A stretch of 64,000 nucleotides of DNA from Eledone cirrhosa (GCA_964016885.1 OZ024747.1:37138001-37202000), one strand, 5' to 3'; positions 1,810 through 57,809 are shown, counted from the first letter of the stretch. The notes: a model not told the origin generated them from the letters alone. Numbers and translations: made by a program.

Positions 1810-4800
1810 GTACACAGGTACTCACGATCACACGTACATACAGACGTGCACTTCACCCTACACAGGTAATCACGATCACACGTACAGACAGACGTGCACT
1901 TTACCCTACACAGGTACTCACAATCACACGTACAGAGAGACATGCACTTTACCCTACACAGGTACTCACAATCACACGTACAGACAGACGTGCACTTCAC
2001 CCTACACAGGTACTCACAATCACACGTACAGACAGACATGCACTTTACCCTACACAGGTACTCACAATCACACGTACAGACAGACGTGCACTTCACCCTA
2101 CACAGGTACTCACGATCACACGTACAGACAGACAGACATGCACTTGACCCTACACAGGTAATCACAATCAGACGTACAGACAGACGTGCACTTCACCCTA
2201 CACAGGTACTCACAATCACACGTACAGACAGACGTGCACTTCACCCTACACAGGTAATCACAATAAGACGTACAGACAGACGTGCACTTCGCCCTACACA
2301 GGTACTCACAATCACACGTACAGACAGACGTGCACTTCACCTTACACAGCTACTCACAATCACAAGTACAGACAGACGTACACTTCACCCTACACAGGTA
2401 ATCACGATAAGACGTACAGACAGACGTGCACTTCACCCTACACAGATACTCACAATCACACGTACAGACAGACGTGCACTTGACCCTACACAGGTAATCA
2501 CGATCACACGTACAGACAGATATGCACTTCACCCTACACAGGTAATCACAACTACACGTAAAGACAGATATGCACTTCACCCTACACAGGTAATCATAAT
2601 CACACGTACAGACAGACGTGCACTTCAACCTACACAGGTAATCACAATCACACGTACAGACAGACATGCACTTCACCCTACACAGGTAATCACGATCACA
2701 CGTACAGACAGATATGCACTTCACCCTACACAGGTAATCACAACTACACGTAAAGACAGATATGCACTTCACCCTACACAGGTAATCATAATCACACGTA
2801 CAGACAGACGTGCACTTCAACCTACACAGGTAATCACAATCACACGTACAGACAGACATGCACTTCACCCTACACAGGTACTCACAATTACACGTAGAGA
2901 CAGACGTGCACTTCACCCTACACAGGTACTCACAATCACACGTACAGATAGACGTGCACTTCACCCTACATAGGTAATCAAGATCACACGTACAGACAGA
3001 CATGCACTTCACCCTACACAGGTAATCACGATCACACGTAAAGACAGACATGCACTTCACCCTACACAAGTAATCACGATCACACGTACATACAGACGTG
3101 CACGTCACCCTACACAGGTACTCACAATCACACGTACAGAGAGACGTGCACTTCAACCTACACAGGTACTCACGATCACACGTACAGACAGACATGCACT
3201 TCACCCTACACAGGTAATCACGATCACACGTACAGACAGACGTGCACTTCACCCTACACAGGTACTCACGATCACACGTACAGACAGACATGCACTTCAC
3301 CCTACACAGGTAATCACGATCACACGTACAGACAGACATGCACTTCACCCTACACAGGTAATCATGATCACACGTACAGACAGACATGCACTTCACCCTA
3401 CACAGGTACTCACGATCACACGTACAGACAGACATGCACTTCACTCTACACAGGTAATCCCAATCACGCGTACAGACAGACATGCACTTCCCCCTACACA
3501 GGTAATCACGATCACAGGTACAGACAGACATGCCCTTCACCCTACACAGGTAATCATGATCACACGTACAGACAGACATGCACTTCACCCTACACAGGTA
3601 CTCACGATCACACGTACTGACAGACGTGCACTTCACCCTACACAGGTACTCACGATCACACGTACAGACAGACATGCTCTTCACCCTACAGAGGTACTCA
3701 CGATCACACGTAGAGACAGACATGCACTTCACCCTACACAGGTAATCACGATCACACGTACAGACATACGTGCACTTCACCCTACACAGGTACTCACGAT
3801 CACACGTACAGACAGACATGCACTTCACCCTACACAGGTAATCACGATCACACGTACAGACAGACGTGCACTTCACCCTACACAGGTAATCCCAATCACA
3901 CGTACAGACAGACATGCACTTCACCCTACACAGGTAATCCCAATCACACGTACAGACAGACATGAACTTCACCCTACACAGGTACTCACGATCACACGTA
4001 CAGACAGACATGCACTTCACCCTACACAGGTAATCATGATCACACGTACAGACAGACATGCACTTCACCCTACACAGGTAATCATGATCACACTTACAGA
4101 CAGACGTGCACTTCACCCTACACAGGTAATCACGATCAGACGTACAGACAGACATGCACTTCACCCTACACAGGTACTCACGATCACACGTACAGACAGA
4201 CATGCACTTCACCCTACACAGGTAATCCCAATCACAGGTACAGACAGACATGCACTTCACCCTACACAGGAAATCCAAAACACACGTACAGACAGACATG
4301 CACTTCAACCTACACAGGTAATCACGATCACACGTACAGACAGACGTGCACTTCACCCTACGCAGGTAATCACGATCACACGTACAGACAGACATGCACT
4401 TCATCCTACACAGGTAATCATGATCACACGTACAGACAGACATGCACTTCACCCTACACTGGTACTCACGATCACACGTACAGACAGACATGCACTTCAC
4501 TCTACACAGGTAATCCCAATCACGCGTACAGACAGACATGCACTTCACCCTACACAGGTAATCACGATCACACGTACAGACAGACATGCACTTCACCCTA
4601 CACAGGTAATCACAATCACACTTACAGACATACGTGCACTTCACCCTACACAGGTAATCCCAATCACACGTACAGACAGACATGAACTTCACCCTACACA
4701 GGTACTCACGATCACACGTACAGACAGACATGCACTTCACCCTACACAGGTAATCATGATCTCACGTACAGACAGACGTGCACTTCACCCTACACAGGTA

Positions 4801-5942
4801 CTCACGATCACACGTACAGACAGACATGCACTTCACCCTACACAGGTAATCACAATCACACGTACAGACAGACGTGCACTTCACCCTACACAGGTAATCC
4901 CAATCACACGTACAGACAGACATGCACTTAACCCTACACAGGTAATCCCAATCACACGTACAGACAGACATGAACTTCACTCTACACAGGTAATCCCAAT
5001 CACACGTACAGACAGACATGAACTTCACCCTACACAGGTACTCACGATCACACGTACAGACAGACATGCACTTCACCCTACACAGGTACTCACAATCACA
5101 CGTACAGACAGACATGCACTTCACCCTACACAGGTAATCATGATCACACGTACAGACAGACATGCACTTCACCCTACACAGGTACTCACAATCACACGTA
5201 CAGACAGACACGGACTTCACCCTACACAGGTACTCACAATCACACGTACTGACAGACACGGACTTCACCCTACACAGGTACTCACAATCACACGTACAGA
5301 CAGACATGCACTTCGCCCTACACAAGTAATCCCGATCACACGTACAGACAGACATGCACTTCGCCCTACACAAGTAAACACGATCACACGTACAGACAGA
5401 CATGCACTTCACCCTACACAGGTAATCACGATCACACGTCCAGACAGACATGCACTTCGCCCTACACAAGTAATCACGATCACACGTACAGACAGACATG
5501 CACTTCGCCCTACACAAGTAATCACGATCACACGTACAGACAGACATGCACTTCACCCTACACAGGTACTCACAATCACACGTACAGACAGACATGCACT
5601 TCACCCTACACAGGTACTCACGATCACACGTACAGACAGACATGCACTTCACCCTACACAGGTAATCATGATCAGACGTACAGACAGACATGCACTTCAC
5701 CCTACACAAGTATTCACGATCACACGTACAGACAGACATGCACTTCGCTTTACACAAGTAATCACGATCACACGTACAGACAGACATGCACTTCACTCTA
5801 CACAGGTACTCACGATCACACGTACAGACAGACATGCACTTCACCCTACACAGGTAATCATGATCAGACGTACAGACAGACATGCACTTCACCCTACACA
5901 AGTAATCACGATCACACGTACAGACAGACACCATACACAGGC
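1810..5942 (+). repeat. 48-bp minisatellite array, about 86 units
   Basis: Unit CACACGTACAGACAGACATGCACTTCACCCTACACAGGTAATCACGAT; gives the 16-aa periodicity seen in the ORF track. Confidence 0.97.
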
Positions 5943-8194: not shown

Positions 8195-9058
8195 GCCTGT
8201 GTAGGGTGTCTGTCTGTACGTGTGATCGTGAGTACCTGTGTAGGGTGAAGTCCATGTCTGTCTGTACGTGTAATTGTGAGTACCTATGTAGGGTGAAGTG
8301 CATGTCTGTCTGTACGTGTGATTGTGAGTACCTGTGTAGGGTGAAGTGCACGTCTGTCTGTACGTGTGATTGTGAGTACCTGTGTAGGGTGAAGTGCACG
8401 TCTGTCTGTACGTGTGATCGTGATTACCTGTGTAGGGTGAAGTGCACGTCTGTCTGTACGTGTGATCGCGATTACCTCTGTAGGGTGAAGTGCATGTCTG
8501 TCTGTACCTGTGATCGTGATTACCTGTGTAGGGTGAAGTGCATGTCTATCTGTACGTGTGATCGTGAGTACCTGTGTAGGGTGAAGTGCATGTCTGTCTG
8601 TACGTGTGATTGTGAGTACCTGTGTAGGGTGAAGTGCATGTCTGTCTGTACGTGTGATCGTGATAACCTGTGTAGGGTGAAGTGCATGTCTGTCTGTACA
8701 TGTGATCGTTAGTGCCTGTGTAGGGTGAAGTGCATGTCTGTCTGTACGTGTGATCGTGATTACCTGTGTAGGGTGAAGTGCATGTCTGTCTGTACGTGTG
8801 ATCGTGATTACCTGTGTAGGGTGAAGTGCATGTCTGTCTGTACGTGTGATTGTGATTACCTGTGTAGGGTGAAGTGCATGTCTGTCTGTACGTGTGATTG
8901 TGATTACCTGTGTAGGGTGAAGTACATGTCTGTCTGTACGTGTGATTGGGATTACCTGTGTAGGGTGAAGTGCACGTCTGTCTGTACGTGTGATTGTGAT
9001 TACCTGTGTAGGGTGAAGTGCATGTCTGTCTGTACGTGTGATTGGGATTACCTGTGTA
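8195..9058 (-). repeat. Inverted copy of the 48-bp minisatellite, about 18 units
   Basis: Reverse complement of the 1810-5942 unit; the adjoining unique sequence 7940-8210 is also an inverted match to 5930-6300. Confidence 0.97.
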
Positions 9059-24094: not shown

Positions 24095-27000
24095 GATTGC
24101 CCCCTCGTTATCGAATATGGCCATTGCACAAAAAAAAACAACAAACAAAAAAGAAGCATAACGACAATAACAAAAATAATAATTTTAAAAAATATATATA
24201 TATACACACACACACACACATACATATCTATAATATATATACACACATACACACACACACACACACCATTAACGGTGCTGCGATCGAATGTGGCACTTTA
24301 ACCCAGCCAATTATCTAAAATGCCTTGCAACCAAAACATTCGCTGGGAATAACCGGCTGTGGTTGGAGTTCATGTACTTTTGTATGTCGTTTGAGCCCTG
24401 CTGCTGATTTACACTCTTTACCACATGCTTGGCAAGCATGATGAGTAGCATCTCCAACAGCAGCCTGGTAGTCAACCACTGGTCTCACTCTATGACCGTG
24501 AAGATGACTTTTGAGTTCAGCCTCGCCGAGTCAGAGTCTCGCACAGACGCTTTATGTCAGCGCCAGAGGAGGACCTTCGCCGTCTGGAGTGCAACAACAA
24601 TGCCCTTCCTCACACCCTTCTTTATTTTCTCGTATGCGATTCGAGATGCCTCAAAGGCAACTTCTCCCTCATATACAGTCTTTCTCCATTTATTACGATC
24701 AGCAGCAACATTTTCCCATGTATCAGCAGAGATATTAGCGTCTTTCAAAGAGGCTTTCAAGGAATCCTTATACCTCTTTTTGGGGTTTATGTGGCGGTCG
24801 TTTTCCTTTAACTAACTCTCCATAAAAGAGTTGTTATTGTATTCTAGAATCCTTCATCCTGGCAAGGTGACTACTCCAACGGAGTCTTTGCTTAAGCACA
24901 AGAGCTTCTATACTGTCACACAGAGAGCTTTCCAAAATCTCGACATCACTGATGTGGTCCCTCCAGTGAACGCCATGGATCCGTCTGAGACACATCTGAC
25001 GGAAACGCTCCAATTGTTTAAGGTGGTGTCGATATGTGACCCAGGTCTCGCAAGCACAAAGAAGAGAAGAGAGCACACGTGCCTTATACACCTTTACCTT
25101 TGTCTTCTTGCATATGTCCCGTCGACCCCAGAGGCGCCTTTCTAGCTTTCCGAAAGTATCAACTCCCAATCCTCCCAATCCTGAGTGGAACTTCACTATC
25201 AAGATTGCAGCAATCAAAATGTGCTGCATATCACTCTCTGTGTGCGCCACAAGATCGCAATCATCTGCATACAAGAGGTCTCTTATGATTGATGTGAATA
25301 CCCCCGTTTCCACAGCAAAGCGCTTGATGTCAAACATGCTGCCAGAGGTTTGATATTGGATGTAAACACCATGCTCGCAACTCCCGAATTCAACATAGAA
25401 AACCACCGCAAAGCACATGACAAACAGGGTCGGTGCTGGAATATACCCCCGCCTCACTCCATTTCCCACTGAGATAGGCTCCAACATGCCACCTCCGAAA
25501 TCAACCCAAACCCCCATGTCATCATGGAAAGGCCCAACCAAAGCAAAGAACCCATCAGGGCAACCAAGGCTCTGGAGAAGCCCCCACAATGCATCTCCGC
25601 CAACAGTATCAAAAGCTTTTGTCAGATCGACAAAACCCCGAGACAGACGCAAACCTCGCTCCACACACCTCTCCCGGAGTTGTCCAGCCGAGAAGACCAC
25701 ACCAGCAGCGCCGCGTCCATAACGAAAACCAGACCGACCATCAGGAAGAACACAATCCGCAATGTGTGTCAGCAGACGGTTCAGAAGCACCCTACATAAC
25801 ATTTTTCCTACGACAGAAAGCAATGATATACATCTGTAGTTTCCACAATCATTCTTGTCACCCCTTTCCTTGCACAAGACCACCATCACTGCATCTCTTC
25901 AGTCCTCAGGCACAGATCCACCAGCCCATATCCTGCCAAACAAAGAGTGAAGATGTTGCAGAAGTCCCTCATCAACATACCGCAAGAGCCCACATGCACG
26001 CCATCCACACCCGGAGACACTCCACTGTTCAGCTTCGAGATAGCTACTGCAACCTCCACAAGCGTCGGTGGCTCTGCAAGAGCTACTCCCACAGGTTTTT
26101 TCAGGAACGAGATTGAGGAAATCTTCATTGACGTCAGACGTCTGACCCAAACGTTTATCAGACTGATATCCCCACGAAGAAGTTCCCTGCCATCCTTGTT
26201 GCGAAGCGGTGTCACCAGAACATAAAAAGGTCGATAAACTTCACGCAAGCGACTGTACAACAGCTTTGTGTCATTGGAATCTGATGCAGCTTGCATCTCA
26301 TCAGCCCTCCCACTCCACCACTGATCCTTCATCTGAGAAAGCCTCGGCCTCACACGTGATTTCACATCCTAGAGTTCCTTATGCAACATATTCTTCTCCT
26401 GTGGTTTTGCCGTCAAGTAGCGTAACAGAGCACGCCACTTATCACCCAAAAAGTCATCTATATGTTCATCATTCTCATTAAACCAGTCTTGATGTTTTCT
26501 CTGCACCAATCCCAGAACACGCATGCCTACATCATAAACCGACTTTTTAAGGGTCGGCCAATCCTCACCAAGATCTGCAGCTTGGATCTCTTCTCACAAT
26601 GTCCTCTTCACATTATTATCTCTAAGACGAGCAGCATTCAATCTCCTAGGAAGGGTAACACCAGGAGCACGGATTTTACGTTTAGTGATTAGTTTCACTT
26701 TTGCATGTACCAGGTGGTGGTCCGTCCAGCACCCAGTCCCACCAAGAGCACGAACACACCGCTCATCCTGTCCGTCACGCATCCTGGCAAGGATGCAGTC
26801 AAAAAAAAATGCCATTTCCTAGATGCAGGATGCATCCATGTGGTCCCAAATTTGTTCTTTTGCTGGAACATGGTGTTGGCAACATACAGACCAGCTCCCC
26901 ACACATCTGCAACAGGAGCATACCATTGTTGTTACACTTTCCCACCCCACGCTTTCTAATCACATTCCATGTGTCAAAATCCCCACTCACTCTAGCATCA

Positions 27001-27430
27001 AAGCCCCCAAGACGACGACTTTGTCTGCTTGAGGGACATCTCTTAAAACACCCTTCAAGGTTTAGTAGAAAGACACTCCCTCCCCATCGACAGAACCCAC
27101 AACAGCAGCACACCCACCCACTAGGGTCGCACAGCTCCCGCGTCTAGCGGAACTCCCATGGACACAAGACGCTCACCAATCCCCACTGGGAACTCCTCCA
27201 ACTTACCCACAAGAGCAGTCCCAACAGCAAATTCCACCCCAGCTCTGTTCCAGTTCCTTCATCTCTTCCTTTCCAGAAGGATTTATATTCTGTAAGATGA
27301 GCAGCTCCAACTAGCCTCGACTCGGATAAAGTTGTCAAGATCGTAACGCCGAAGCAGATTTGCGGTCCCCCACCCAGGATGTCCAGAGTAATCCCTGTCA
27401 AGCAGCGTCCGCAGGCTCCAGCAGCCAATA
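24095..27430 (-). mobile_element. RTE-clade LINE, near full length and disrupted (APE, RT, C-terminal C2H2 region)
   Basis: APE motifs (TTWMHP, CWTDH), RT motifs (NYRCISLLSVVGK, DLTKAFDTV, LLYADD, CETW, RLRWSSHLARM) and a 3' hairpin at about 24098-24123. Confidence 0.93.
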
Positions 27431-27599
27431 TTAAAATGCCTTGTTTGGCTCTATTACAGTGCCACGATTACGAGCGGGCCTAGGCTGTGATACCGTGGTG
27501 CCCCTGCCCTTACTGCCAATTATCTCTTTGGTTCCAGAAACCTTATTACCAATTATCTCTTTTATATTATTTTGGAATATCATTGAATTGGGGGGGGGG

Positions 27600-27660
<61 letters not shown>

Positions 27661-27903
27661 TTTTCTTTATTAACCACAAGGGTTCACATAAAGTAGAGAT
27701 TAAGGACAGTACAGGACAATACAGGACGGTACAAATGGGCATTTCTGCGTGTAAAAAAACAGAGGTTGAAATAAAATAACAAAGAAAAAATTCCCCAATA
27801 GGGGGGAGACTTCCAAGGGACATTTGTGGAGAAAGCCCATTAAAAGACCACAGTGGCCCTGACCACCAGGGCAAGTGCCCTCTCCCAGTTTTCCACCTTT
27901 AAT

Positions 27904-30900
27904 TTACAGACACATACTCAGAGAAGGCCCATTCATTCGGGCCATACTTGCTTCTCTCACCCATCTTTCAACAAAATGCTGGGAAGAGAGCACTTCCCTC
28001 TCTACCCTGATTTTCCTTTTCAAATGAAATTTGAAAAAGTTAATCAGGGCATCACCGAAGAGGTAAGTGCTCGTCTTCAGCCCTTTCAAACGTGTCCACC
28101 ATACTATCTCTTTCGCCATGGCCACCAGACAGATAAAAACTGCCTGCCCTTCCAGGCTAAAGGAAAGGGACGGGGCAATCCTCACGATGGACTCAGCTGA
28201 TAGCTGGATCCGTCCTACACGTGACAGCAGGTGTTCGACATAAACCCACAAGTCAGCAATGCTCGGACACTGGACGAGTGCGTGCAGGACGGTTTCGTCG
28301 CCCTGCGCGCATCACGGACATGCCCGGCTGACGGCACCTCCATGCCTGTAGAGTTTATCCCGAACTGGCAAAGCTCCTCGGTAGCACTGCCAGGCCAGGG
28401 ATTTCTGGAAGTTGTCCATAGGCCCCGGCCCGAAAGTCCTTCCGAAGAGATTGGCTAGTTGATTTTCGTCGACGCCTAGAGTTTCTCCAAGTACGTCGTC
28501 GCTCTTCCCCTCCACTAATCCCCTATAGAACGCCAAGGTGGAGTTTCCACCGATCACATTGCCCGATTGGTCGAGGGCTGTGAGCGCCTGAAGACATTCC
28601 AGTCTCCAAGCGCTCCCTCTCGGTCTTCGCTTGACCCAGGACTGCAGCTCCGTCAAGGAGACGAGCTGGGGAAAAACGTGTCTTGCAAACGGCGACCACA
28701 CCTGATCACCGTCGAGGAAGAGGTGGAGATGTCGTAGCCTGAGCGCGTGTCTGCGCATCATCAGCCACGGCATGCCCAGCCCTCCACGTAGCGGGTGTTG
28801 ACAGCAGATGGACCGCCTGACCATCGGAGCGCGTCCCTTCCACAAGAAGCGAAAGAGCAAACGCTCCAGCGCAGTCAGGCGGGGCTTAGGACAAGGTACG
28901 ACGGTCAGGCGGTAGTAGATGACGGATGCGATGTACGCATTCGCCACCTCCGCTCGACCTTTCAGGGATAGCTTCCTCTCGGCCCATTTCTGGGTGAGAG
29001 AAGCCACCCTGCTCGTCACCTCGTCCCAGCTTTTGTCCGTCTGGAGGTCTGGACCGAACCAGACCCCTAGCAATTTAACCGGTCCGTCCGTCCAGCGCCC
29101 GACGACGCTGTTGGACGGCATGGACCTGCCTCTCCAGGTGCCGAGCTGCAGGCCCACTGACTTTTCCTGGTTGATCATCGCTCCTGTCACCGCTTCGTAT
29201 TCTCTTAGTGTAGTGCCGATCGCCTCGATGTGTTTGGCGTTCGACACCACTACGGTGACATCGTCGGCATATGCTGACACGGACCTTCCGCATCCTAGTT
29301 CGCGCGGGACCCCCCTCAACGTCTCCAGTTTGTGCAGTAATGGCTCGAGAGTCAATACGTACAATAGGGACGAGAGGGGACATCCTTGGCGGACCGAGCG
29401 CATGATGTTGAACGGTTCCGAAGGGTGACCGTTCACTCTCACTACAGAGCAGATGTCGCTGTCCATGGCAGCGATCCAGCCTCTGAAGACGGGCCCAAAG
29501 CCAGCCGCCCTCAGGACTGCCGTTAGGTAACGATGGTCGACCCTATCGAAGGCTTTCGACTGATCTAAATTGATCAAAGACCCACCCGTGCCAGGTTCCC
29601 TAGCTACCCTCTCTACGATGTATCGCATGAGGTGGAGGTTGTCGTGGATGGATCTGTCGGGAATGGCGCATGTCTGTGCCTCTCCCACCAGACCACCAAC
29701 GACAAGCGCCAACCTCTTTGCTAGCACCTTGGCCAAAATCTTGAACTCTGTGTTTAGCAGAGTTATGGGCCTAAAATTATCTATGTTATCCCCCTTGTTC
29801 GGATCCTTTCTCAGCAGCGCCACCGCTCCTCGGCTCACAGAGCTGGGAATTCTCCCGTTCTGTTGCCAGTTGCAGTAGACGTCCGCCAAGAGGCCTCCGA
29901 ACAAGTTTGGCATTTGTACGTAAAGTTCATAGGGCAGACCATCCAAACCAGGCGATTTACCCCTTGTGCAACTAGTCATTGCATCCCGTACTTCAGTGGC
30001 TGTTATCGGCTTTTCACAACACTCCGCCTCAGTGGCCGAGAGCCGCGGCAGTCTGTCGAGGTAGACACTAAAGTCCATCCCTCGATCCGGCCCACCGCTT
30101 CCCCCGAAAAGCTGAGCGGAGTGTCGCTGAAAAGCTTCACACATTTGCCCGGGATCGAGTAGCATGCGCCCGTCGTGGTCCACCAAAGACCGGATCGTGG
30201 CTTTGTTGCCTCCGTACTCGGACCCATTGAGCTGCTTTTGTCCCCTCGTGTCTGAGAGCACGCACCCTGGCTCTGACAACGCAGTCTTCGTGCATTGCAT
30301 TGAAGAATTGGTCAAAGGCCAATTTCACCGCAAGTACGTCGGCCGCGAAGCCTTTGCTAAGCGCCTCGTGTAATTTTCTAACGAGTTCTCCATGTGCTCT
30401 ATTTTTCTCTATTGCTAAAGCCTTACTAAACCTAATGGACTCTATTCTAATCGCTCTTTTTAGAGCAAACCACCACTTGTTGTTGACGATGGCCCCCGTC
30501 AACGCCCGCTTAACTAGTTCGCTAATCCGGTCTCTGTAGGCCTTGCGCGCTGGTAAGGACGCGTTTAGCTTCCAGTAGCCGAGTCCTTGTATATGAAGCC
30601 TATCTAAGTCAAGCACACAGATCACGAATTTGTGGTCCGTGTAGCTGACTATCTTTAATTGTAGACAGCCAATGCTAGACCTATCTATTTCCCTACAAAT
30701 TACTCTATCTAGATATGATCTGGATGACCCGATACGATTCGTCCAAGTCCACATTGGCACATTCGGGAAATCCAATCGGTACCTGTCAGACAGTTCAAAA
30801 CGCCTGAGCAGGTTGGTGCGGCTCTTTCACCCTCCACCCCTATCCGCTAATCCCACACAGTCCCAGCGTGCATCTAAGATCCCGTTCCAGTCGTCCACTA

Positions 30901-31312
30901 ACACTAAAGAGCGGGACTTTCCAAGAAAGGTCTCCAGACGCCGGAAGAAATCAGGCCGCCCTGCTCCTGTCGGGGCATAGACGGCCACTAGCCTGAAAGC
31001 TTGCCCGTCTTCGCTGGTCACGTCCAGCACCACCAACTTACCTTCTGGGTCCAGGAAGATGGCTCATATGGCGAGTTCCAAACCTCTTCGAAAAATCACA
31101 GCAACTCCTCCCTCCGATCCAGGACGGCTGGGAGATGCATACACATCGTAGCCGCCAAAGATCGGTGCGAAGGCCTGTGCTTCGGAGATTCTGGTCTCGC
31201 TGATGTCCACTACATCTATGTTTAGTGACCTGACGACGTTGAGCAGGTGACCCTGCTTCCATGACGACCCCAAGCCACGCGCATTTATGCTGCCTATTCT
31301 GAGTGAGGTCAT
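27904..31312 (-). pseudogene. Tx1/L1 ORF2 (APE endonuclease, RT, zf-RVT), frameshifted
   Basis: SINARGL, ISET, VYAP, DWN, SYLDR, TDH, GYWKLN, KSPGLDGLP, FRPITLLN, DQSKAFDRVDH, VRQGCPLS, AYADD. Confidence 0.93.
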
Positions 31313-31971
31313 GTTGAAATGGAGTGGAAAAGATGGGAAAGACCACTTACCTTACTTCTCGTAGAGGAAGGATGGTTTGTCCATCCTTTTCACTGCTTGT
31401 GGCCTCCTCCGGAAGGATGTCCTTATAAATCCTCCTGGAGAGTGCTTGTCGGAAGTCTCCGATGTCTTTGCGGAATTTTTGTTTTAATGTCGTGTAAGTT
31501 TTCTGTGTGATGCGAGTGATTTGTATGTGTGGAGGAGGTGTGAACATTTGGGGTGTTGTGTAGTCTTTTTCTGTGATGCTGGTGTTGTGTTGGATGTAGT
31601 GTAATAATTGGTTGTTGTTCAAATTTAATGCTGTGTAGTGTGTATTGTTTTGGTTGTTTTGTTTTGTTTGCGTTTGTTGTGGGTTTGTTTCTGTTTCGCT
31701 TTTTGGTGACTTTTGTGGTGTTGGTGATGGTGGTGTTGGGGTTAATGATGGTGATGGTGTTGGTGTTTGTGGTGATGGGGTTGGTGATGCTGGTGTGGAT
31801 GGTGGCATAGCTGCCCTAACTTTTTTGTTTGATGGTTTATTTGTTTCCTTCTGTATTTTGTTTTTGGAAGGGGAAGGAAAAGGATTTTTTTCTTTTTTGG
31901 CTTCTTTTTCTTCTTTTCTTTTTTCCTGATACCGTTTCCCACTCCTCGTCATCACAATCTTTCTCCAGTTG

Positions 31972-33312
31972 CTATAGGTCGGGGAGTGGAAAATCATCCA
32001 CAGACGTTGGTTTTGGTTGTGGCGTGGTGGATGGTGTAGGCGCTGGTGCTAGTTCTGGCGCGTTGAGTGGTCGTGGTGTTGGTTTTGCTACTGTTGCTGG
32101 GGTTGTTGCGGCTAAGGTTGCTTCTGTTGTTGCGGCTACAGTTGTCGCTGCCATTTCTGCTACTGGTGGTGTTGATGGTTGAGTCACTGGGGTGGGTAAG
32201 AGAGGTGGCCTCAACTTTTTAGCCTGAGGGCAGAAAGCCCTTAGGTGGGTTCCTTCACCACAAACGACACACCCAGGCCTTCTGCCCTCGACGATTACGG
32301 TGAGGTGGCTGCCGTCATTGGGGTCTTTTACCTCTGGGATCTCCTCAATGCTTTTAGGGTCCGCTTGGATCAGGAGCTCCATCCCAGATCCGGACCAGTT
32401 CTCCTGCTTTTCTTTTGCTATTTCTATTATTTTAGTGTTGGCCTCAATGCCGGCGAGGACGGCAGCCATTAGCCAGTGAATTTCGATGGCCGGTGGAACG
32501 TGGGTCACCCTGATCTTTACGAGTCTCTGGCCACAATAGCTTGGGACGAGTGTGAAGTCGTCGCTTCTTAATGGGGCTGTGGATTGCTCTCTGGCCTCCT
32601 GTGGTGTTCCAAAGAACACATCCACGGTTCCATATTTCTGCCCATGTCTGATGTGGGTTTTTTGCCCAGACATGTTCCAAAGCTTTTTGGATTTGGGACT
32701 CAGATGCCCGTTCCACTCGGCGCGATTTTATGTTAATCGTCCGCTAAGAGACGGTGCATAGGCGCTGATGCTCCATTTTATTAGGTGTGGGGGGAGGGGG
32801 TGGCTGACCCTGTAGCCATCTTTCTTTACCATTCTGTTGGCTTCATCTAATTCCTCCTGAATTACCTGGATTGTTTCGCATTTTTTGGCTGCTTTGGCAA
32901 ACGACACGGTGTTGTTATTCTCATTGTTGTTGTTGCTGTTGTTGTTATTGTTATTTTTGTTATTGTTATTTTTAGTTTCAGTTGTGGTGATGGTGGCGTC
33001 AGTGGTGTTCGGTGTGGAAGAGTCGATTCTGGGTGAATCCATTTCGATGTCACGAGATTATAATTTATTTTTTTCTTTTGATTCTGTTGTCGCTGTGGTG
33101 GTGGTTGGAGTGGCAGCTTTAACACCTGCAGTTATTGGTAATGGCGGGAAATGAATGTCTGCATGAGACAAATTTAAATTATTGCTACTGCTTATATTTT
33201 TAGTGTTGCCAAACGTAGAAATATTTACAATGGTGGTGTTGGAGTGAGGTGTTAGTCTGTGAGGAAGGCTGTCAGCTTGGTGTGGCTGTGAGTCGTCCAT
33301 GATTTTTTTCAA
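31972..33312 (-). pseudogene. Tx1/L1 ORF1 (gag-like, zinc knuckle) with two in-frame stops
   Basis: ORFs 33058-33312, 32728-33042 and 31972-32673 share one frame; CVVCGEGTHLRAFC is a CX2CX4HX4C knuckle. Confidence 0.8.
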
Positions 33313-33516
33313 AGGTAATTTTTTGTTTGATAATTATAAAAGTTTAAATTATGGGCTCAAGGCCCCAATCTTTTTGAGTGTCCTTTTCTGAAAACAAATT
33401 ATGTGACCTTATAAATACTTAACAACAAAAATTTTCCATAAATGGCAATTTGAAACAACTGAAAACAACAAATCTTTGCGGAGCTCACGATGATACGATT
33501 TCCTACGTAGGTCGCC

Positions 33517-33600
<84 letters not shown>

Positions 33601-34340
33601 AAGAAGAAGAAGAAGAAGAAGAAGAAGAAGAAGAATGGCAAAATGGCTAAGTGGACAGACAGGTAAATAATTTCACCACCAACACCACCTCCGCCACCAT
33701 CACCACTACCACGCCAACAACTCTAGTCAAGTTACCTCAACTTCTATTTCTACTTCAACTTCAACACCATCACTACAGTACTACGATCACATCACCACCA
33801 CCACTGCCTCATTATCGCTACCGCCGCTATTCTCTCCCAATACCTCCTGCTAAGTACTACTAGCACAGCACCACCACCACCACTACCACTGCCTCATTAT
33901 CGCTACCGCCGCTATTCTCTCCCACTACCTCCTGCTACGACATGCAACGTAGTATTCCAACTAAAAGAGGAAGGCATCAAAAGATATAAATAGACTGATT
34001 TGATGACCCGGTCAAAAAATCAAAAAACCAAATATCAAAATCAAAACAGCACAGCAGCAACGATATAACGTAAAGAAAAGAAAAATGAAAAGAAAAACAA
34101 ACAAACAGACAGAGAAGGAAAAAAAACTAAGTCAGACATTCAAACATTACATTACAATGAAACTTATGCTTATTCTTTTTTGGGGAGGTTTTACCTATTT
34201 GTTTGTTTGTTTATTTATGTTCGTCTACAGCGTGATAGTGCCACACTAAAATCACCGGGGGTGATGAAATCACCGGTGGTGATGAAATCACCGGTGGTTA
34301 TGTAACCATACATTCACCAATCCTCGATAAGAGTGTTTAA

Positions 34341-37300
34341 ATGTCGAACCTAAACAGTTCGAATAACGGTGAAGTGGAGACTGGAATGTCATGTGACAGA
34401 CTCTCACCCAGCAGGTGCTCCCTGGCTCAGCAGCAGGGACCTGGCTGTCATCCAAATACTGCTGGTATCGGAGGGAGAAGAAGAAGGAAAGGGACCAGAA
34501 CCAACTGGACGAAAGAATTGAATAGAACTGTTATGCAATGTTACCTGAAGAGTAACCCCAAGGAGAAAGGCTATAGGAAACGGATGCATAACATCTGGAA
34601 CGAGATTGGTCTATTTAAATTAGATGAACAAAAATTGGCCGGGCAGGTTCGGGTAATAAGAACTAATGGGTGGATAAGCGAGCTGGAACTGGAGGAACTG
34701 AGCAGAGAGATTAGGTTGGAAATGGAGAGTGGAGTATGCCAGGCAAACGAGCCAGTGGGAAATGAAGGTGAAGAGGTTGAGAGAACGGAGGAACCATCCG
34801 AAACAGACAATGATCTGAATGCTGAAATAAATAATACCTGGAACAAAGATACGGCCATTGAGGAGATGAATGCTGACGGGCTAGGACAAGATTTAGTTGA
34901 TATACTAAACTTAGTGGTAGATGAATTGAACAATGGTAGTGGGAAACCTATGAACCTAAGATTTGTAGACAGGAAAAAGTTAAAAGAAACAACAGCTAAG
35001 GTAAACAAAGTCATCCCATACCTTGAGGCGAGGAGCCTTCACCAGTGCAACAATATCCTCAAAGCAACAGCAAATGCGGTGAGGAAATTACTTGGCATAA
35101 AAGCGAGAGGAAACAACAAACAAGAAAGATCAGAACCTTGGTGGAAGAAACGACTGAATGGTCAAATCAAGGAAATGAGAAATGACATTGGAAAGCTTGA
35201 GTCCCGACTGAATGGGACACTAAAAAACATAGACACTAAAAATAGACTGGAAATAAAGTACAAAACTAAGAGGAAAAAACTAAATATTATCATAGAGGAA
35301 CTGAAGCAACGCATTGTAGTAAAGAGTACAAAAATTAGGCGATACGAGAGATGAGCTAGTCAGTATAGACAGAAGCGCAAGATGTTGTTTGGACAGCTTG
35401 AAGGGAAAGCAAGAGGCAACGAATTGATCCCTGAGGCGGAACAAACTAAGATATTCTAGAGAGGAATATGGGGCAGGATGTTAAACATAATGACCAGGCA
35501 GTGTGGATTGAGACAGTACATAAGGAGATTAGTGAACAGGCACACCAACAAACTGATTTGAGTATCACAGTCGAAATTCTTAAGGGGCAAGCCAAAAAAC
35601 TAACCAACTGGAAATCACCAGGCCCAGATGGTGTGCAGGGGTATTGGATTAAAAATATAACATCCCTCCACCCGAAACTGACAACCATGTTCAATGACTG
35701 CTTGATGTCAGGTGAGGTACCAGAGTGGTTGACAAAAGGTACCACAGTTCTGGTAATGAAAGACCGAATCAAGGGTAATGATGTTACCAACTATAGACCT
35801 ATCACATGTCTGTCCTTAATGTGGAAACTGTTGACAAGCATTATGTCTGAGGAAATCTACCATCACCTCCACACAAACAACTTGTTACCGGACGAACAGA
35901 AAGGATGCCGAAAGAAGTCCCGTGGTACAAAAGACCAGTTACTTATTGATAAGATGGTAATGAGGAATTGCAAGAGGAGACACACTGTTCTTGCCATGAG
36001 ATGGATAGACTACAAAAAGGCATTTGACATGGTGCCTCATTCTTGGATCACCAAAAGCCTAGAGATATTCAAGGTGGCAGATAACATCAGACAGTTGTTG
36101 GGCAAAAGTATGAAGTCCTGTAAAACAGAGTTAACATCAGCTGGAGAATCCTTGGGAGGCGTGAAGATCAAGAGAGGTATCTTCCAGGGAGATAGTCTGT
36201 CCCCTCTGTTGTTTGTCCTTGCCCTGATGCCCCTGACCATTATACTGCGAAAAGTGAGAGTAGAATACAAGTTGGGAAAGGGAGAGCTTACCATCAATCA
36301 TCTCCTCTTCATGGATGATCTTAAGCTCTTCGGGAATAGTGAGAAGGAGTTGGATGTGCTTGTTGACACTGTCCGTATTTTCAGCAATGATATATGTATG
36401 CAATTTGGTATTAGTAAGTGTGGAGTCCTTGTGATGAAGAGGGGTAAATTGAGCAGAAGGAACGGAATCCAGGTACCAACAGGTGAGATGATAAAGGAAA
36501 ATTACACTGAAGACGGATACAAGTATTTGGGTGTCTGGAGGCTGATGACATCAAGAACAAAAAAATGAAGGAATTGATAAGATCTGAATACATTCTTAGA
36601 ATAAGGAGCGTATTAAAGTCACATCTGAACAGTAGGAATGCCATAAGTGCAGTAAATTCCCGAGCTGTGTCTATTATTAGGTACAGTGCGGGAATTCTGA
36701 GATGGAATGTTGCTGAACAAAAAGAAATGGATAGGAAGACTAGGAAGCTATTGACTATCTACAACATGTTCCACAAGAGGAGTGATGTCGATAGACTCTA
36801 CTTAAGGAGATCTGAAGGTGGAAGATGTCTTATCAGCATAGAGGACTGTGTTCAGATGGAGAAAAACAACCTACACAAATACGTGACTGATAGTAAGGAG
36901 CCAATGCTCAGAATTGTACTGAAGGAGAGGACAATAGACCAGGGGATGTCCAAGGAGGAAATAACAAGGAGAAAGAGCAGCCTTCATGAAATATCCCTTC
37001 ATAGTACCTTCTTTGAGAAAACTGAATTCAGAGATCCACAGACATGGAACTGGTTGAAAAGAGGAGACCTTAAAAAGGCTACAGAAGGAATGCTAATGGC
37101 TGCGCAAGAGCAGGCCCTCAAAACGAAGTGGTTGAAACACCATATTTACAAGGAGGAGGCTAGCCCACTGTGCGGGATCTGTGGAGAGAGAGAGGAGACT
37201 GTGGCTCACATTGTATCCGAGTGTAAACACCTAGCCCAGACTCACTATAAGGGCTGGAGACATGATGTGATGGGCAGGGTGATCCACTGGCACCTATGCA

Positions 37301-37742
37301 AAGTAAACAATTTACCACATTCTGAGAAGTGGTATGAGCATAAACCAGAGTCGGTGATAGAAAACGATCAGATGAAGGTGCTGTGGGATTTCAGGATACA
37401 GACGGACAAGAAACTGGAACACAATAGACCTGACCTGGTGGTTTTGGACAAGGAAAAAAATCGTGCCTGATTGTGGATGTGGCCTGCCCATTCGACACGA
37501 GAGTGCAAGAGAAGGAGAGGGAGAAAATTAACCAATACCAGGACTTAAAGTGGGAGGTAAAAAGGATTTGAAACTGCCATGAAGTCAAAGTGGTCCCGAT
37601 TGTCATAGGCGCACTAGGTACTATCTCAAAAGCTTTCCAGGGATGGTTAAAGAAAATTGGCCCCACCACGCTTTTTGGAACGCTTCAAAAGGCATGCTTG
37701 TTGGGAACAGCAAGAACCCTCCGATACGTCCTGAATATCTGA
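34341..37742 (+). pseudogene. R4/Dong-clade non-LTR retrotransposon ORF (RT, CCHC, RLE), disrupted
   Basis: WKSPGPDG, YRPITCL, DYKKAFD, GIFQGDSLSPL, LFMDDLKL, CGICG..H..C, RHD, RPDLVV; TAA-rich 3' end near 37830. Confidence 0.93.
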
Positions 37743-37879
37743 GGCTGCAGGTAGTGGCTTGATATTCATTTCAACAAACTTTCCAGTTAACTAACATCAA
37801 TGACTGAGACTCAAAGAACAATAATAACACTCTTAATAATTATTAATTAATGCAATCGTGGGTGAAGAATATTTTTAAA

Positions 37880-38125
37880 ATGAGGAAAGATTGTGCACTG
37901 AGCCAATCCCAATCTCTGAGCGACAGTAGCTATAACCCGAAAAGAAGAAAAGATCAACATCATCGGTAACTACTGAGCCCCAGTTTTTATGTTGGAGTTA
38001 ACCCAGTTTCCTGAGATGCCTTCTCCTAGAATGCCCTGACAAGGGCTAGGGGTCCTTCACTCTCAGTGGTTTAACTGCGCGATTGGGTATCCAGCCCGAT
38101 TATTTCTATGTCGCCGAGGATGAAA
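37880..38125 (-). mobile_element. RTE-type 5' UTR fragment
   Basis: Similar to 42450-42610, including minus-strand CCCTTGTCA..CTAGGAGAAGG. Confidence 0.5.
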
Positions 38126-38158
38126 AGAAAATAATCACTTATTGACACTCATACGTAC

Positions 38159-38262
<104 letters not shown>

Positions 38263-47673: not shown

Positions 47674-47720
<47 letters not shown>

Positions 47721-47726
<6 letters not shown>

Positions 47727-48953
47727 GATAAGCAGAACAAGTAAAATTCAATCAATTTTTCAAAATACATTAAAAAATATAATATAAATATTTACCTCTT
47801 CTAGTGGCCCTTACTGATCAGTTTCGCTTTGTAAAACCTCATAAATCCGATGGATTTATGATGGAAAACCAAAGCTCATCAGAGAAGCATTTTCCCTTCC
47901 TAGGGCTAAACGTCCCAGGAACGACAAAATATACAACCTCCTGCCAGCTAATAAAGGTCTGAAAGGTCGTAAAAGTGACCCGTATGTAAACTGGACCGAA
48001 GTAAAAGCGGGAAAATCAAAGACTTGCTGTCTACAATTACTACTAAAAAAATAGCAGCCAAGTAAAGCAACAGATTTGTTCTCAACGGACGGAGAAAAAG
48101 GTAGAAGTTAATATGTCCAGGGATACTAGGTACCCCTAGAAATACATAGGTTGTCTATGATTCAGGGTTGTTCAATGGTGTTAATTTGATACACCAGAAC
48201 TTTAATATTAAGATAAGCAGAACAAGTAAAATTCAATCAATTTTTCAAAATACATTAAAAAATATAATATAAATATTTACCTCTTCTAGTGGCCCTTACT
48301 GATCAGTTTCGCTTTGTAAAACCTCATAAATCCGATGGATTTATGATGGAAAACTAAAGCTCATCAGAGAAGCATTTTCCCTTCCTAGGGCTAAACGTCC
48401 CAGGAACGACAAAATATACAACCTCCTGCCAGCTAATAAAGGTCTGAAAGGTCGTAAAAGTGACCCGTATGTAAACTGGACCGAAGTAAAAGCGGGAAAA
48501 TCAAAGACTTGCTGTCTACAATTACTACTAAAAAAATAGCAGCCAAGTAAAGCAACAGATTTGTTCTCAACGGACGGAGAAAAAGGTAGAAGTTAATATG
48601 TCCAGGGATACTAGGTACCCCTAGAAATACATAGGTTGTCTATGATTCAGGGTTGTTCAATGGTGTTAATTTGATACACCAGAACTTTAATATTAAGATA
48701 AGCAGAACAAGTAAAATTCAATCAATTTTTCAAAATACATTAAAAAATATAATATAAATATTTACCTCTTCTAGTGGCCCTTACTGATCAGTTTCGCTTT
48801 GTAAAACCTCATAAATCCGATGGATTTATGATGGAAAACCAAAGCTCATCAGAGAAGCATTTTCCCTTCCTAGGGCTAAACGTCCCAGGAACGACAAAAT
48901 ATACAACCTCCTGCCAGCTAATAAGGTCTGAAAGGTCGTAAAAGTGACCCGTA
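47721..48953 (-). mobile_element. Retrozyme-like tandem array: about 2.5 copies of a 485-bp unit, each with a hammerhead
   Basis: Units start at 47721, 48206 and 48691 and are nearly identical; (TA)n on both flanks; hammerheads at 47807-47888, 48292-48373 and 48777-48858. Confidence 0.88.
47807..47888 (-). ncRNA. Type I hammerhead ribozyme, copy 1 of 3
   Basis: Minus strand GCTTCT-CTGATGA-GCTTTG..TCATAAATCC(ATC)GGATTTATGA..CAAAGC-GAAA-CTGATCAG-TA-AGGGC. Confidence 0.85.
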
Positions 48954-49764
48954 TATATATATATATTTAATTACATAATAAAAAACACAATATAATTATT
49001 TCATTACCAAAGTTTTCTAGAAACTAGACGAGCCTTATAGGAAAAATCAGATAGTTATATTTTGGATATAAGTTTTCAAATTGGTATCTATTAAAAATGA
49101 AAGTGAGTTAAAATAACGTATTATAAAAGGAAAAATATATAAATATATATACATCCACACACACATAAAATTACATGCTCGCATTTATACGTACATCCAT
49201 ATACACGCTTATATAGATATATAAGCGCATCAACCACATATATACACTTATACACACGCACACATACATCCACACATATATATATACACACACTCGCACA
49301 TACATAGACACAATATACATAAATGCATATATACATACACACACACATATATATACACACATATATATATACGCACATACACGTACGCTCGCATACATGC
49401 ATACACATACATACATACAAACATACATATATACATACAATATCTACACGCACTCACGATAATACCGTAAGAAAGTACATGTATAGATATATTTTAAAAA
49501 TTATAAAGATTAACAGCGTATGAATGTATATATATATATATATATATATATTTATTTACGTACGTATAGCACGTAGTGCATGTGTATAAACACACACGCA
49601 CCGTGTTATATTTTTACGGTATTGTATTAGCTCAATGTATGTAAAAGAAACCAAAGAACGCTTACATACTCAAACAGTTTTTATTTGTTTACAATGTTTC
49701 ATCCATACGGTATACATACATACATACATACATACATACATACATACATACATACATACATACA

Positions 49765-55100: not shown

Positions 55101-56340
55101 AACATTTGGCCTACTCAACTGGTCATTGCAAGAACTAAGTGAGATGGATGTTAGAACTCGAAAACTTCTCAGTGTTACTGGCAACTTTAACATCAATGGT
55201 GATGTGGATAGGCTATACTTCTCACGCAAGGAAGGTGGCCGGGGTCTAAAATCAATATTAACAACATATGAGACCCGGATAGTAACACTGAAGCAACACC
55301 TTCAACAGAGGAAAAAGGTTGGCAACCATCTTGCCCAGGTTTATGAGCATGAAAAAAGAAATATCATTAGAATAGCGACTGATTTGGAGGAGAGATATGG
55401 AATAAAGCTTGATATAAATCTCTCACCCAGAGAAATCGGAAGATCCTATTCAATGTTCAAACAAGATAAGAAAATTGACCAATTTACAGAAAAAGTTGTG
55501 CATGGATACTTGAGGCGTAAAACACAGACCCTAGAGGGGATAAACCACTCAAAAAGCCTGGCATGGAGTTCCGACAAGATTATAACATCACACCTTGAGG
55601 GATATCTCTATGCAATACAGGAACAAGAACTCCCTACCAAATATCTGCTGCACAAAAGAGGAGGGCCAGCAGCTGACAATAAATGTAGGCTATGTAAAAC
55701 AAAGATCGAGGATGTAAGCCACATTGTTGCCAGCTGCGAAAGAATGTCATCTCGCTACTACCTCCCCATGAGACACGATGGGATAGCTAGAACCATCTGG
55801 AACGCACTTCGGAAAACAAAATTAACAACAAACGAGGATGAATATATTGAGACAGATGGCACTAAGGAATACTGGTGGAACCTGAAAATAAAAACTGCCA
55901 CCAAATTAAAGCACAACCGGCCTGATATTGTAGTTTGGGACCACACATTGAAAACGTGTTCTGTTGTGGAGATCAGCTGCCCACTTGATGTAAAGGTTGT
56001 CAGAAAAATACAGGAGAAGGAGGACATCTACGGACCATTGATGAGGAGTTTACAAATCCAGTATCCAAGATACACCTTTAGCTTCATACCCATCATTATT
56101 GGTGGTACGGGTTATATACCAACCCGCTTGGACCAAAGTATGACTGAACTTGGATTTGCGGACAAAAAGCGCAGCTCCCTAATTCATAGTCTGCAAATGG
56201 CTGCGATAGCTGGCACCTTCAAAATTTGCAAAACATTCTGCGATTCAAGGGATGACAATTTCTTTTCTTTTACAACCTTGCCACCAGGAAGGTGGCCGGT
56301 CAAAAAAATATACTCGAAATTAAGAGAAAGAGAAAACATA
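52113..56340 (+). mobile_element. Near-intact full-length R4/Dong element in (TACA)n
   Basis: Starts after (TACA)n with AAATGGCGACC and ends ..AAAGAGAAAA(CATA)n. Confidence 0.9.
52751..56250 (+). pseudogene. R4/Dong ORF (RT, CCHC, RLE) with a frameshift near 54190
   Basis: KSPGPD, DYQKAFDSVPH, GIFQGDSLS, FFVDDLKL, CRLC..H..C, RHD, RPDIVV..EISCP, KICKTF. Confidence 0.93.
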
Positions 56341-56349
56341 CATACATAC

Positions 56350-57232
56350 ATGATGGCTGCCCCCTCGTTATCGAGTATGGCCCTTCTACGAGAAAAAAAA
56401 ATATATATATAGATATATAGATATATATAGAGGAAAAAGTATGAACCCGACGGCAGAGCTGAAGCCGTTTCGACGGCTATTTCAATACTAATAGGTAGTC
56501 CAGAAATAGCCGTCGAAACGGCTTCAGTTCTGCTGTCGGGGTCATAATTTTTCCTATTTCCCACTCTACTACCCTAGGTATTGAGTACTCTGGTGCGTTA
56601 TAGTGCATCTGGTTCTTTACCACATTGCCTTTGTTATATATATATATATATATTAATAACAATAATAATAATAATAACAATAATAATGACAACAACAACA
56701 ATAATAATATACATATATATATATACACACACACACGCACACACATAAACATATCTATACCCACACACGATAGCGATTAACAGCGCTGCGATCGAATGTG
56801 GCTTTTTAGCCCAGCCAATGATCTAAAATGTCTTGCACAGAGTCGGCAACCAAAACATTCACTGGGAATAGCCGGCTGTGGTTGGAGTTCATGTACTTTT
56901 GCATGTCGCTTGAGCCCTCCTGCTGATTTACATTCTCTACCACATGCTTGGCAAGCATGATGAGTAGCATCTCCAACAGCAGCCTGGTAGTCAACCACTG
57001 GTCTTACTTTATGACTGCGAAGATGACTTTCGAGTCCAGCTTTTCTTAGGCAGAGTCTCGCACAGACGCTGCATGTCAGCACCATAAGAGGGCCCTCGCC
57101 GTCTGGAAGTGCAACAGCAATGCCATTCCTCACATCCCGCTTCACTTTCTCGTATGCGATTCGAAATGCCTCAAAGGCAACTTTTCCCTCATATACAGTC
57201 TTTCTCCATTTATTACGACCAGTTGCAACATT
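56350..57232 (-). mobile_element. 5'-truncated RTE copy encoding three C-terminal C2H2 zinc fingers (56777-57145)
   Basis: Homologous to 24268-24712. CSVC..HLRSH, CQAC..HAKVH, CRLC..HIRS. The 3' hairpin at 56350-56385 is separated from the body by later insertions. Confidence 0.85.
56431..56635. mobile_element. Fold-back mini-element with a one-sided tail
   Basis: Arms 56431-56483 and 56503-56555, tail with ACTC..GAGTACT at 56563-56589, TA-rich flanks. Confidence 0.75.
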
Positions 57233-57809
57233 TTGTATGTATATATGTATGTATATATGTGTGTGTATGTGTGTATATATATCTATATACGGTTGTGCGT
57301 AGGTATGTGTGCGCGCGTATGTGTGTGTATGTGTGAATGTTTGCGTGGGTCATGCGTGTCGGACCTGATATATGCCTGACTTAGGCAGGCGCTAATAGGC
57401 TTGTGGCGGTCGGTATATAGAAGTGGGTGTGCCTGGGTTTGTGGAAGAGAGGGAGAGTGTGTGCGTATATATATATATGTATGGGTGTGTATGTCTACGC
57501 ATGTATGCGTACATATGTGTATGCACGCATGGGTCTGTGTCTGCCTGTGTGTGTATATGTGTGTGTATATGTATGTGTGGGTACATACTCTGGAGTGTGA
57601 ACAGACGTGTGAGATACCGAACCCAGCATGACCCCATTGAAGTATGTCGGACGGAAAATGATGGCCCGTGTAGCAGTAAATAGTGACCAGAACTTAAGAT
57701 GACGTGGAGTAACAACAGTCAATGGCATGACAAGAGTGGAAGAAGTTTTTTGAAGGTGTTTTTTTTATGATAACACCCCAGTGATAAAATTTTACCCGAA
57801 CGAACTACC

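Follow-up and report, generated by a model that had tools for sequence, protein, structure and literature searches.

Clustered sense-strand A>G hypermutation in an octopod RTE-type LINE copy suggests retrotransposition of ADAR-edited RNA

The DNA analysed here is a 64,000-nucleotide stretch of the genome of the octopod Eledone cirrhosa (GCA_964016885.1 OZ024747.1:37138001-37202000; hereafter the window). Its minus strand carries a near full-length insertion of an RTE-type long interspersed nuclear element (LINE), consisting of a body and a displaced piece of its 5' untranslated region (UTR). The original prediction, made from the sequence alone, had placed at 24830..27430 an RTE copy with A>G hypermutation of the sense strand and had read it as a fossil of RNA hyper-editing by ADAR. 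The A>G-rich copy is real, although it extends beyond the predicted limits (Table 1). About one in five of its sense-strand As reads G, which amounts to about 150 A>G changes in excess, and we consider it very probable that an ADAR-edited RNA was here retrotransposed into the germline genome.

Against the per-column majority of 24 other copies of the family, 173/906 sense-strand As of the window copy were changed to G, compared with 17/850 Ts changed to C (Fisher p=7e-35). Because the window copy is old and branches near the base of the ladder-shaped family tree, the count was repeated with 17 basal-subfamily copies as the reference, where A>G exceeded T>C about tenfold (165/886 vs 15/827, p=5e-34), and with basal states reconstructed from the tree (160/926 vs 15/849). 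The family consensus does not carry these G states, as 141 of the 173 are absent from all 24 other copies, and the best 39 non-self matches of the edited reverse transcriptase (RT) block are just 84-85% identical to it. An APOBEC-type signal was absent (G>A 36/862 vs C>T 35/629). The changes took no account of coding effect, affecting 110/429 As at nonsynonymous and 36/142 at synonymous positions. A CpG-related cause was rejected, since only one strand is affected and As that follow C or G are changed least.

The effect on the protein was followed by comparison with L079, an intact young copy, whereas the prediction had relied on typical RTE motifs. Eight of the nine proposed motif changes were recovered: AFDTVNR to AFDTVGG, LWK to LWG, NGVKQG to NGVRRG, SQSGFR to GRSGFR, QLQEKCIEQ to QLRERCVER, LLY to LLC, RFH to RFR, and GDFNARV to GGFDARV. 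For the ninth, DYIL to DCIL, the motif was not matched by the regular expression used, although an A>G change is listed at 26796. The GDFN residues are catalytic in APE-type endonucleases; they became GGFD (26997..27008, minus strand) through two non-silent A>G changes, and the YADD motif is intact. The translation had also been described as rich in Gly, Arg and Val. Over 1071 codon columns this holds for Gly (69 to 103) and Val (84 to 95), while Arg fell from 99 to 91.

The changes are strongly clustered, with two dense blocks, two small clusters and a nearly unedited 3' part of the open reading frame (ORF) that serves as an internal control (Table 1). The state changed 194 times between successive As, compared with 268.6 +/- 8.9 in 2000 shuffles (minimum 237), and the bin chi2 was 196 against a shuffle maximum of 64. 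They also depend on the preceding base: in columns 100-2340 the rate of change was 0.46 after T, 0.33 after A, 0.20 after C and 0.14 after G (G vs others, p=1.4e-6), and the counts against the basal copies were 47/142, 62/267, 27/206 and 27/264, respectively. This order, with the 5' G depletion for which the prediction had proposed a test, matches the metazoan ADAR preference (PMC9989829, PMC5625713; here and below, articles are cited for those parts of their text that were available).

Table 1. Parts of the RTE-type LINE copy in the window, its edited and unedited zones, and the sequence that interrupts it. Positions are counted from the first letter of the window.
Feature	Position	Strand	Evidence or remark
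Body of the RTE-type LINE copy	24097..27659	-	blastn against the intact young copy L079; ends compared
Body, 5' UTR end with (TTA)n and broken single ORF (APE endonuclease, RT, C2H2 fingers)	24097..27659	-	Pfam domains on L079
Body, 3' parts: microsatellite-rich 3' UTR, then conserved 3' end	24097..27659	-	
Upstream 5' UTR part of the same copy	37814..38262	-	83% match to L079 positions 702-1184
Younger sequence (~10.1 kb) inside the 5' UTR (TTA)n; control, unedited	27660..37813	.	27680-30600 matches many copies at 98% identity
Dense edited block 1, endonuclease region	26960..27262	-	39/91 As read G; supported by short-read contigs of single-copy depth
Dense edited block 2, RT region	25300..26150	-	80/230 As read G
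Small edited cluster	27349..27416	-	8/20 As in its 100-column bin
Small edited cluster near the 3' end	24486..24527	-	6/27 As in its bin
3' part of the ORF, nearly unedited; internal control	24545..25147	-	6/173 As; bins 2601-3200
Deletion junction (170-173 bp lost), directly following the YADD motif and close to the 3' limit of dense block 2	25208..25211	-	

Short reads support the G states where they were covered. In run X1, positions 26920-27568 are spanned by a Logan contig of 649 nt, which carries 49 A>G sites with a single other differing letter, at a depth of 7.7, compared with the 1e3-1e5 reached by words common to the family. Run X2, from the same sample, agrees with X1. Because it shows two heterozygous sites, the window copy appears to be present on both homologues. 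As block 1 is present in these contigs at single-copy depth, it is not an assembly artefact. The three conditions under which the prediction would have been refuted (no excess of A>G over T>C, G as the consensus state, no support from reads) were each checked, and none held, the read support applying to the block covered.

The neighbouring LINEs and the baseline copies of the family lack this bias. As the prediction had noted for the neighbouring LINEs, the LINE nested in the 5' UTR is flat (A>G 8/679 vs T>C 8/657), as is its own 25-copy family (28 vs 19 sites, p=0.25), and a 3' fragment of the same RTE family, on the same strand at 56336-57234, is unedited (3/130 vs 2/116). The displaced 5' UTR piece of the window copy has 6/98 A>G and 3/158 T>C, with T preceding five of the six A>G sites. 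Among 52 baseline copies, A>G and T>C were equally frequent (184/36064 vs 163/35432, p=0.36) after 205 of 3468 columns, in which a minor letter occurred in at least 3 of the 52 copies, had been dropped as subfamily columns. An apparent family-wide excess in old copies (pooled 387 vs 246, with L052 and L057 as outliers) was attributed to such subfamily variants and discarded, as it disappeared on their removal.

The family to which the window copy belongs has more than 1,000 relatives in the genome (1,046 candidates with an 80-bp probe and 4,480 with a whole-element probe). L079 has a stop-free frame of 1166 aa with matches to Exo_endo_phos (1e-11) and RVT_1 (1.5e-30) and weak C2H2 matches below the cut-off; the single-ORF architecture of APE endonuclease and RT suggests the RTE label, while the homologues recovered bore no names of clades. 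Members share a conserved 3' end, followed by (ATGT)/(AT) repeats, and have several 5' start points that reflect variable 5' truncations, with one 5' inversion (L092). With its intact endonuclease-RT ORF, 5' truncations and 5' inversion, the family is mobile via RNA. Five near-identical copies (L039-L043, G000:C4:351.9-352.3 Mb), four of them ~27-28 kb apart, likely lie inside a tandem segmental duplication.

As for the window copy itself, no target-site duplication could be called, since its ends fall in microsatellites or later insertions. The 170-bp gap was considered as an intron and rejected, as its alignment is without GT-AG ends. The sequence that interrupts the 5' UTR comprises two LINE pieces in opposite orientation, with RVT_1 matches at 28315-30324 (minus strand) and 35450-36565 (plus strand). 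At 27590-27602 the sense strand has 13 C where other copies carry ~25-30 T before the ORF. Elsewhere in the window there is a 48-bp tandem array of 86 copies (1811-5930) and, 2.3 kb off, an inverted 18-copy block (8207-9058) that is 93-94% complementary to it; the two would form a long duplex if transcribed. A 485-bp unit is repeated 2.5 times, with 99% identity, at 47720-48954.

Screening the family for similar outliers, as the prediction had proposed, yielded one more heavily edited copy, the 5'-truncated L071 on C14 (G000:C14:14392121-14394327; hereafter the C14 copy). On its sense strand A>G reached 141/588 and T>C 16/560, and As were changed less often after G (18/161) than after T (27/91) or A (63/175). 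The clustering of the changes lay beyond all 2000 shuffles in both copies, each of which is old and basal in the family. They have 25 G sites in common, with 60 and 71 not common, and the C14 copy is edited in its 3' third and unedited in part of the RT region. Because the patches differ, the two copies represent independent events.

The family was searched with five pattern screens, each requiring G at chosen A columns. The first matched only the window copy, and so did the fourth, a weak screen since it required three adjacent Gs. The second had six matches (the window copy, the C14 copy, two young-lineage and two background copies), and the third had three (the window copy, the C14 copy and a 240-bp fragment with 6/68 vs 1/59, not significant). 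The fifth returned the C14 copy together with 15 unremarkable copies. Of the screens built from the window copy, the two informative ones each recovered the C14 copy, and a third heavily edited copy did not emerge from the pattern screens among the more than 1,000 copies; heavily edited copies are therefore rare, and probably make up well under 1% of the family.

A weaker bias of the same type was found in the young, active subfamily to which the screens had led. From its 125 pattern matches, 90 were analysed (30 first-listed and 60 of the next 70 rows; of the remainder, 7 belonged to a set analysed before, 3 were other rows and 25 were matches outside the listing), and none of the 90 was heavily edited. 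Polarised by the basal copies, 59 of the 85 common variant sites are A>G and 5 are T>C, and at the common A>G sites G precedes in 4/58 and follows in 34/58. At synonymous sites alone, inherited A>G changes have a 5' G in 1/40 (p=1.8e-4) and a 3' G in 25/40 (p=1.1e-4), so that selection on the protein did not make the motif; at non-silent sites the 5' G count is 4/49. The trunk of the tree gave a similar picture, with A>G 64 and T>C 26, a 5' G in 4/64 (expected 0.30) and a 3' G in 32/64 (expected 0.27). At the tips that lead to old copies, where ordinary ageing dominates, A>G was 208 and T>C 173, with no motif. Changes private to single young copies were again biased (A>G 91 vs T>C 26 of 450), also in the 61 youngest copies (52 vs 8 of 99). 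One very young copy, L193 (G000:C4:283886065-283889865), differs from the young majority by 23 A>G and no T>C, 10 of the A>G being private and spread along the element, and is a candidate for a moderately edited recent insertion.

It is probable, if not by much, that this lineage-wide bias also originates from ADAR and that a low-dose version of the process that marked the window copy supplies many of the substitutions of the active lineage. The serious rival, which we rate as possible but clearly less likely, applies to this bias only: the element's own RT could misinsert deoxycytidine opposite template A, giving sense A>G without any editing. In vitro, a human L1-RT and an R2-RT substituted thymine in 40-47% of their errors and misinserted cytosine most, at substitution rates of 1.2-2.2e-4 per base (PMC11331410). 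By our arithmetic this corresponds to ~2-3.5e-4 per template A, a value within ~3-4 fold of that seen in the 61 youngest copies, whose excess is (52-8)/49,302 = 9e-4 per A, possibly accumulated over more than one round. The weak motif of the private A>G changes (5' G in 20/91, p=0.055), with no depletion at synonymous sites (7/27), also counts in favour of such errors, and the 3' G enrichment could come from primer slippage. What misinsertion does not readily explain is the strong avoidance of a 5' G by the inherited changes, silent and non-silent alike, which is the hallmark of ADAR, nor the 23 A>G without T>C in L193. Moreover, 25 of 27 common sites failed the four-gamete test in a first set of 31 young copies, a set chosen by likeness to one member and so biased. 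These failures are consistent with recurrent hot sites, although conversion or template switching could also cause them. The patches of the window copy, where 35-45% of the As are changed, are beyond the reach of RT error.

For the hypermutated copies, the alternative that survives best is a one-off failure of DNA synthesis at insertion, caused by a skewed deoxynucleotide pool or by a faulty RT favouring G opposite T during second-strand synthesis, and we regard it as unlikely. Such a failure would likewise be one-stranded, blind to coding and tied to retrotransposition, and it would fit the more frequent change of the last A of A runs than of the first (45/182 vs 35/182 in the window copy, 47/117 vs 22/118 in the C14 copy). 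The last-A effect, however, follows from a preference for a 5' A plus a 3' G, and the 5' order T>A>C>G is that of ADAR. A pool imbalance should, in addition, span the whole 4-kb copy, whereas zones of 42% and ~3% alternate and are placed differently in the two copies.

Damage after insertion, through error-prone repair of the polymerase-eta type (WA>WG) or transcription-associated strand asymmetry, is largely refuted and seems very improbable. Polymerase eta also favours T and A on the 5' side, and both copies are old and basal. Mutagenesis of this type, however, raises A>C and A>T together with A>G on the same strand, and the sum of A>C and A>T is close to its T mirror in both copies (24 vs 16 in the window copy, 15 vs 16 in the C14 copy). 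The remaining substitutions are equally frequent in and out of the patches (0.063 per column in the dense patches vs 0.057 outside; A>C/T 9 times in dense and 17 times in sparse zones), and these two results argue against an error-prone repair polymerase. Both copies are also biased on the sense strand of the element, while the 3' third of the window copy, the nested LINE (a weaker control, being younger) and the same-strand RTE fragment 29 kb away are unbiased. An artefact of assembly or polishing, or a G-rich subfamily that escaped recognition, can hardly be maintained, since, for all that block 2 is unspanned by the listed contigs, the confirming runs come from one sample and the window copy is older than most copies of the first yardstick, block 1 recurs in the contigs of two runs with at most one difference, the copy has mostly unique G states, no close sibling and no silent-site enrichment, and the excess stands against the basal subfamily.

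The retrotransposition of an ADAR-edited RNA would require an ADAR in the host. The deaminase domain PF02137 matches four loci of the genome (G000:C6:13.64 Mb, C1:146.4 Mb, C1:320.7 Mb and C25:17.35 Mb), and the one on C6 is ADAR2-like, its deaminase-domain exon being 95% identical to ADAR2 of Octopus vulgaris, in line with the coleoid host assumed in the prediction. In octopus, hyper-editing and the potential to form double-stranded RNA are among the highest measured (PMC5625713). The sense transcript of the window copy would first pair over several hundred bases with antisense RTE sequence. As no inverted repeat was found inside the element, we propose that this partner came from another transcript or from a flanking inverted copy; given the more than 1,000 copies in the genome, an antisense RTE partner is plausible. 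The top 25 inverted repeats of the window were considered as a source of the duplex and set aside, since they belong to an unrelated 48-bp satellite. Within the duplex, ADAR would then deaminate 35-45% of the As. With inosine read as G during target-primed reverse transcription, the ~150 excess A>G changes would be fixed on one strand, the sense strand. Because conserved endonuclease residues were lost through the edits, the inserting protein was probably supplied in trans by another copy or made before the editing. The dead copy would thereafter have aged normally, and it has indeed accumulated ~6% of other changes, the 170-bp deletion and the later LINE insertions.

Several points weigh against this interpretation. 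The strand, type, clustering and neighbours of the changes, their indifference to coding effect, the independent C14 copy, the mobility of the family via RNA and the presence of an ADAR gene in the host are established; ADAR's causal part is read from the signature of the changes, and germline activity of ADAR on RTE RNA in this animal is assumed. With no inverted repeat inside the element, an intramolecular duplex is not available, and no duplex partner was identified. The 5' preference is incomplete, as 27 As that follow G were still changed, and on the 3' side, where ADAR more weakly prefers G, or A at hyper-edited sites of invertebrates, the rates in the window copy (G 0.30, A 0.29, C 0.22, T 0.21) give no significant preference for G (p=0.14-0.19). 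In human cells ADAR1 binds L1 particles, and editing of L1 RNA was undetected (PMC5224506). The read support covers block 1, with no listed contig spanning block 2 (26150-25300); runs X1 and X2 represent one sample, which may be the assembly's own source, and two runs of restriction site-associated DNA, X4 and X5, from two other individuals leave the dense edited blocks uncovered.

The original prediction had further proposed ADAR as a heritable mutator or as a restriction factor of LINEs. The evidence supports the former, possibly for the lineage as a whole: we lean slightly towards the view that ADAR acts as a heritable mutator driving an active octopus LINE lineage, each round of retrotransposition writing a few RNA edits into germline DNA. 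If so, most new substitutions of the active family would be fixed edits, including amino-acid changes that are now the majority state in the master lineage, the rare heavily edited copies would represent the extreme end of one and the same distribution, and the old ones would preserve, as datable fossils, how active and how specific ADAR was in the past. Restriction, on the other hand, is unsupported. Although editing kills a heavily edited copy, there are just two such copies among the more than 1,000, both completed their insertion, and the family is active.

A-to-I editing is regarded as non-heritable, and the known effect of ADAR on LINEs is independent of editing. With ~150 fixed edits, a germline LINE copy would directly document, in the genome itself, that RNA edits can pass into inherited DNA, and would show ADAR at work on the RNA of retrotransposons, in the germline or the early embryo, in an animal famed for neural editing. 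Should the lineage-wide bias have the same cause, editing would be the chief source of mutations in an active transposon family. This would affect the dating of transposable elements, as A>G changes inflate divergence, as well as the theory of their base composition, and would make it possible to test any genome for past ADAR activity from sequence alone. In the literature searched, whose coverage is incomplete, we came across neither germline LINE copies with fixed hypermutation of the ADAR type nor a LINE lineage whose evolution bears an ADAR signature; a preprint on a dog SINE contained nothing that bears on the question. In its available parts, a review of the base composition of transposable elements discusses APOBEC and makes no mention of ADAR; in recent non-LTR copies, that is, those lacking long terminal repeats (LTRs), it names C>T and G>A as the dominant changes (PMC9099904).

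Judged by its architecture, the family resembles the active RTEs of Octopus vulgaris (RTE-2_OV) and O. bimaculoides, which have a single endonuclease-RT ORF of ~1100 aa and show recent activity; the available text of that study mentions editing once, as a general background remark (PMC9115989). The change, its clustering and its 5' preference are those of ADAR hyper-editing of repeat RNA in metazoans and cephalopods, for which repeats are the main target and octopus an extreme case (PMC5625713, PMC9989829, PMC9068888), and cephalopod editing outside the nervous system targets repeats (PMC9068888). That hyper-editing has been described in RNA and is non-heritable, while the pattern reported here is in genomic DNA. 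The restriction of human LINE-1 by ADAR1 is another case in which ADAR meets a LINE ribonucleoprotein, but it is independent of editing, none having been detected over >2.5 kb of L1 RNA (PMC5224506), whereas the window copy bears what we take to be a catalytic footprint.

The two closest parallels come from retroviruses and LTR elements. ADAR-type hypermutation has been reported in avian retroviruses (review PMC12925331), where clustered A>G changes in a retroelement, reaching nearly 50% of the As in the affected region, were ascribed to ADAR acting on RNA. The retroviral case is tied to the LTR or to an inverted repeat in the RNA, while the window copy is a non-LTR element with no such internal repeat and is inherited in the germline genome, with ~150 sites over 2.3 kb. 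The footprints of APOBEC "DNA editing" are likewise rare, strand-biased and clustered hypermutations that were fixed in single copies at insertion and damage the ORF; they consist of G>A changes, arise through cytidine deamination of cDNA and have been described in vertebrate LTR elements, with invertebrates as the negative control (PMC4866542, PMC2873906). The window copy differs from them in carrying A>G changes, attributable to deamination at the RNA level, in a mollusc LINE, and it would thus be the RNA-level counterpart of the APOBEC footprints in a group that had been used as their negative control.

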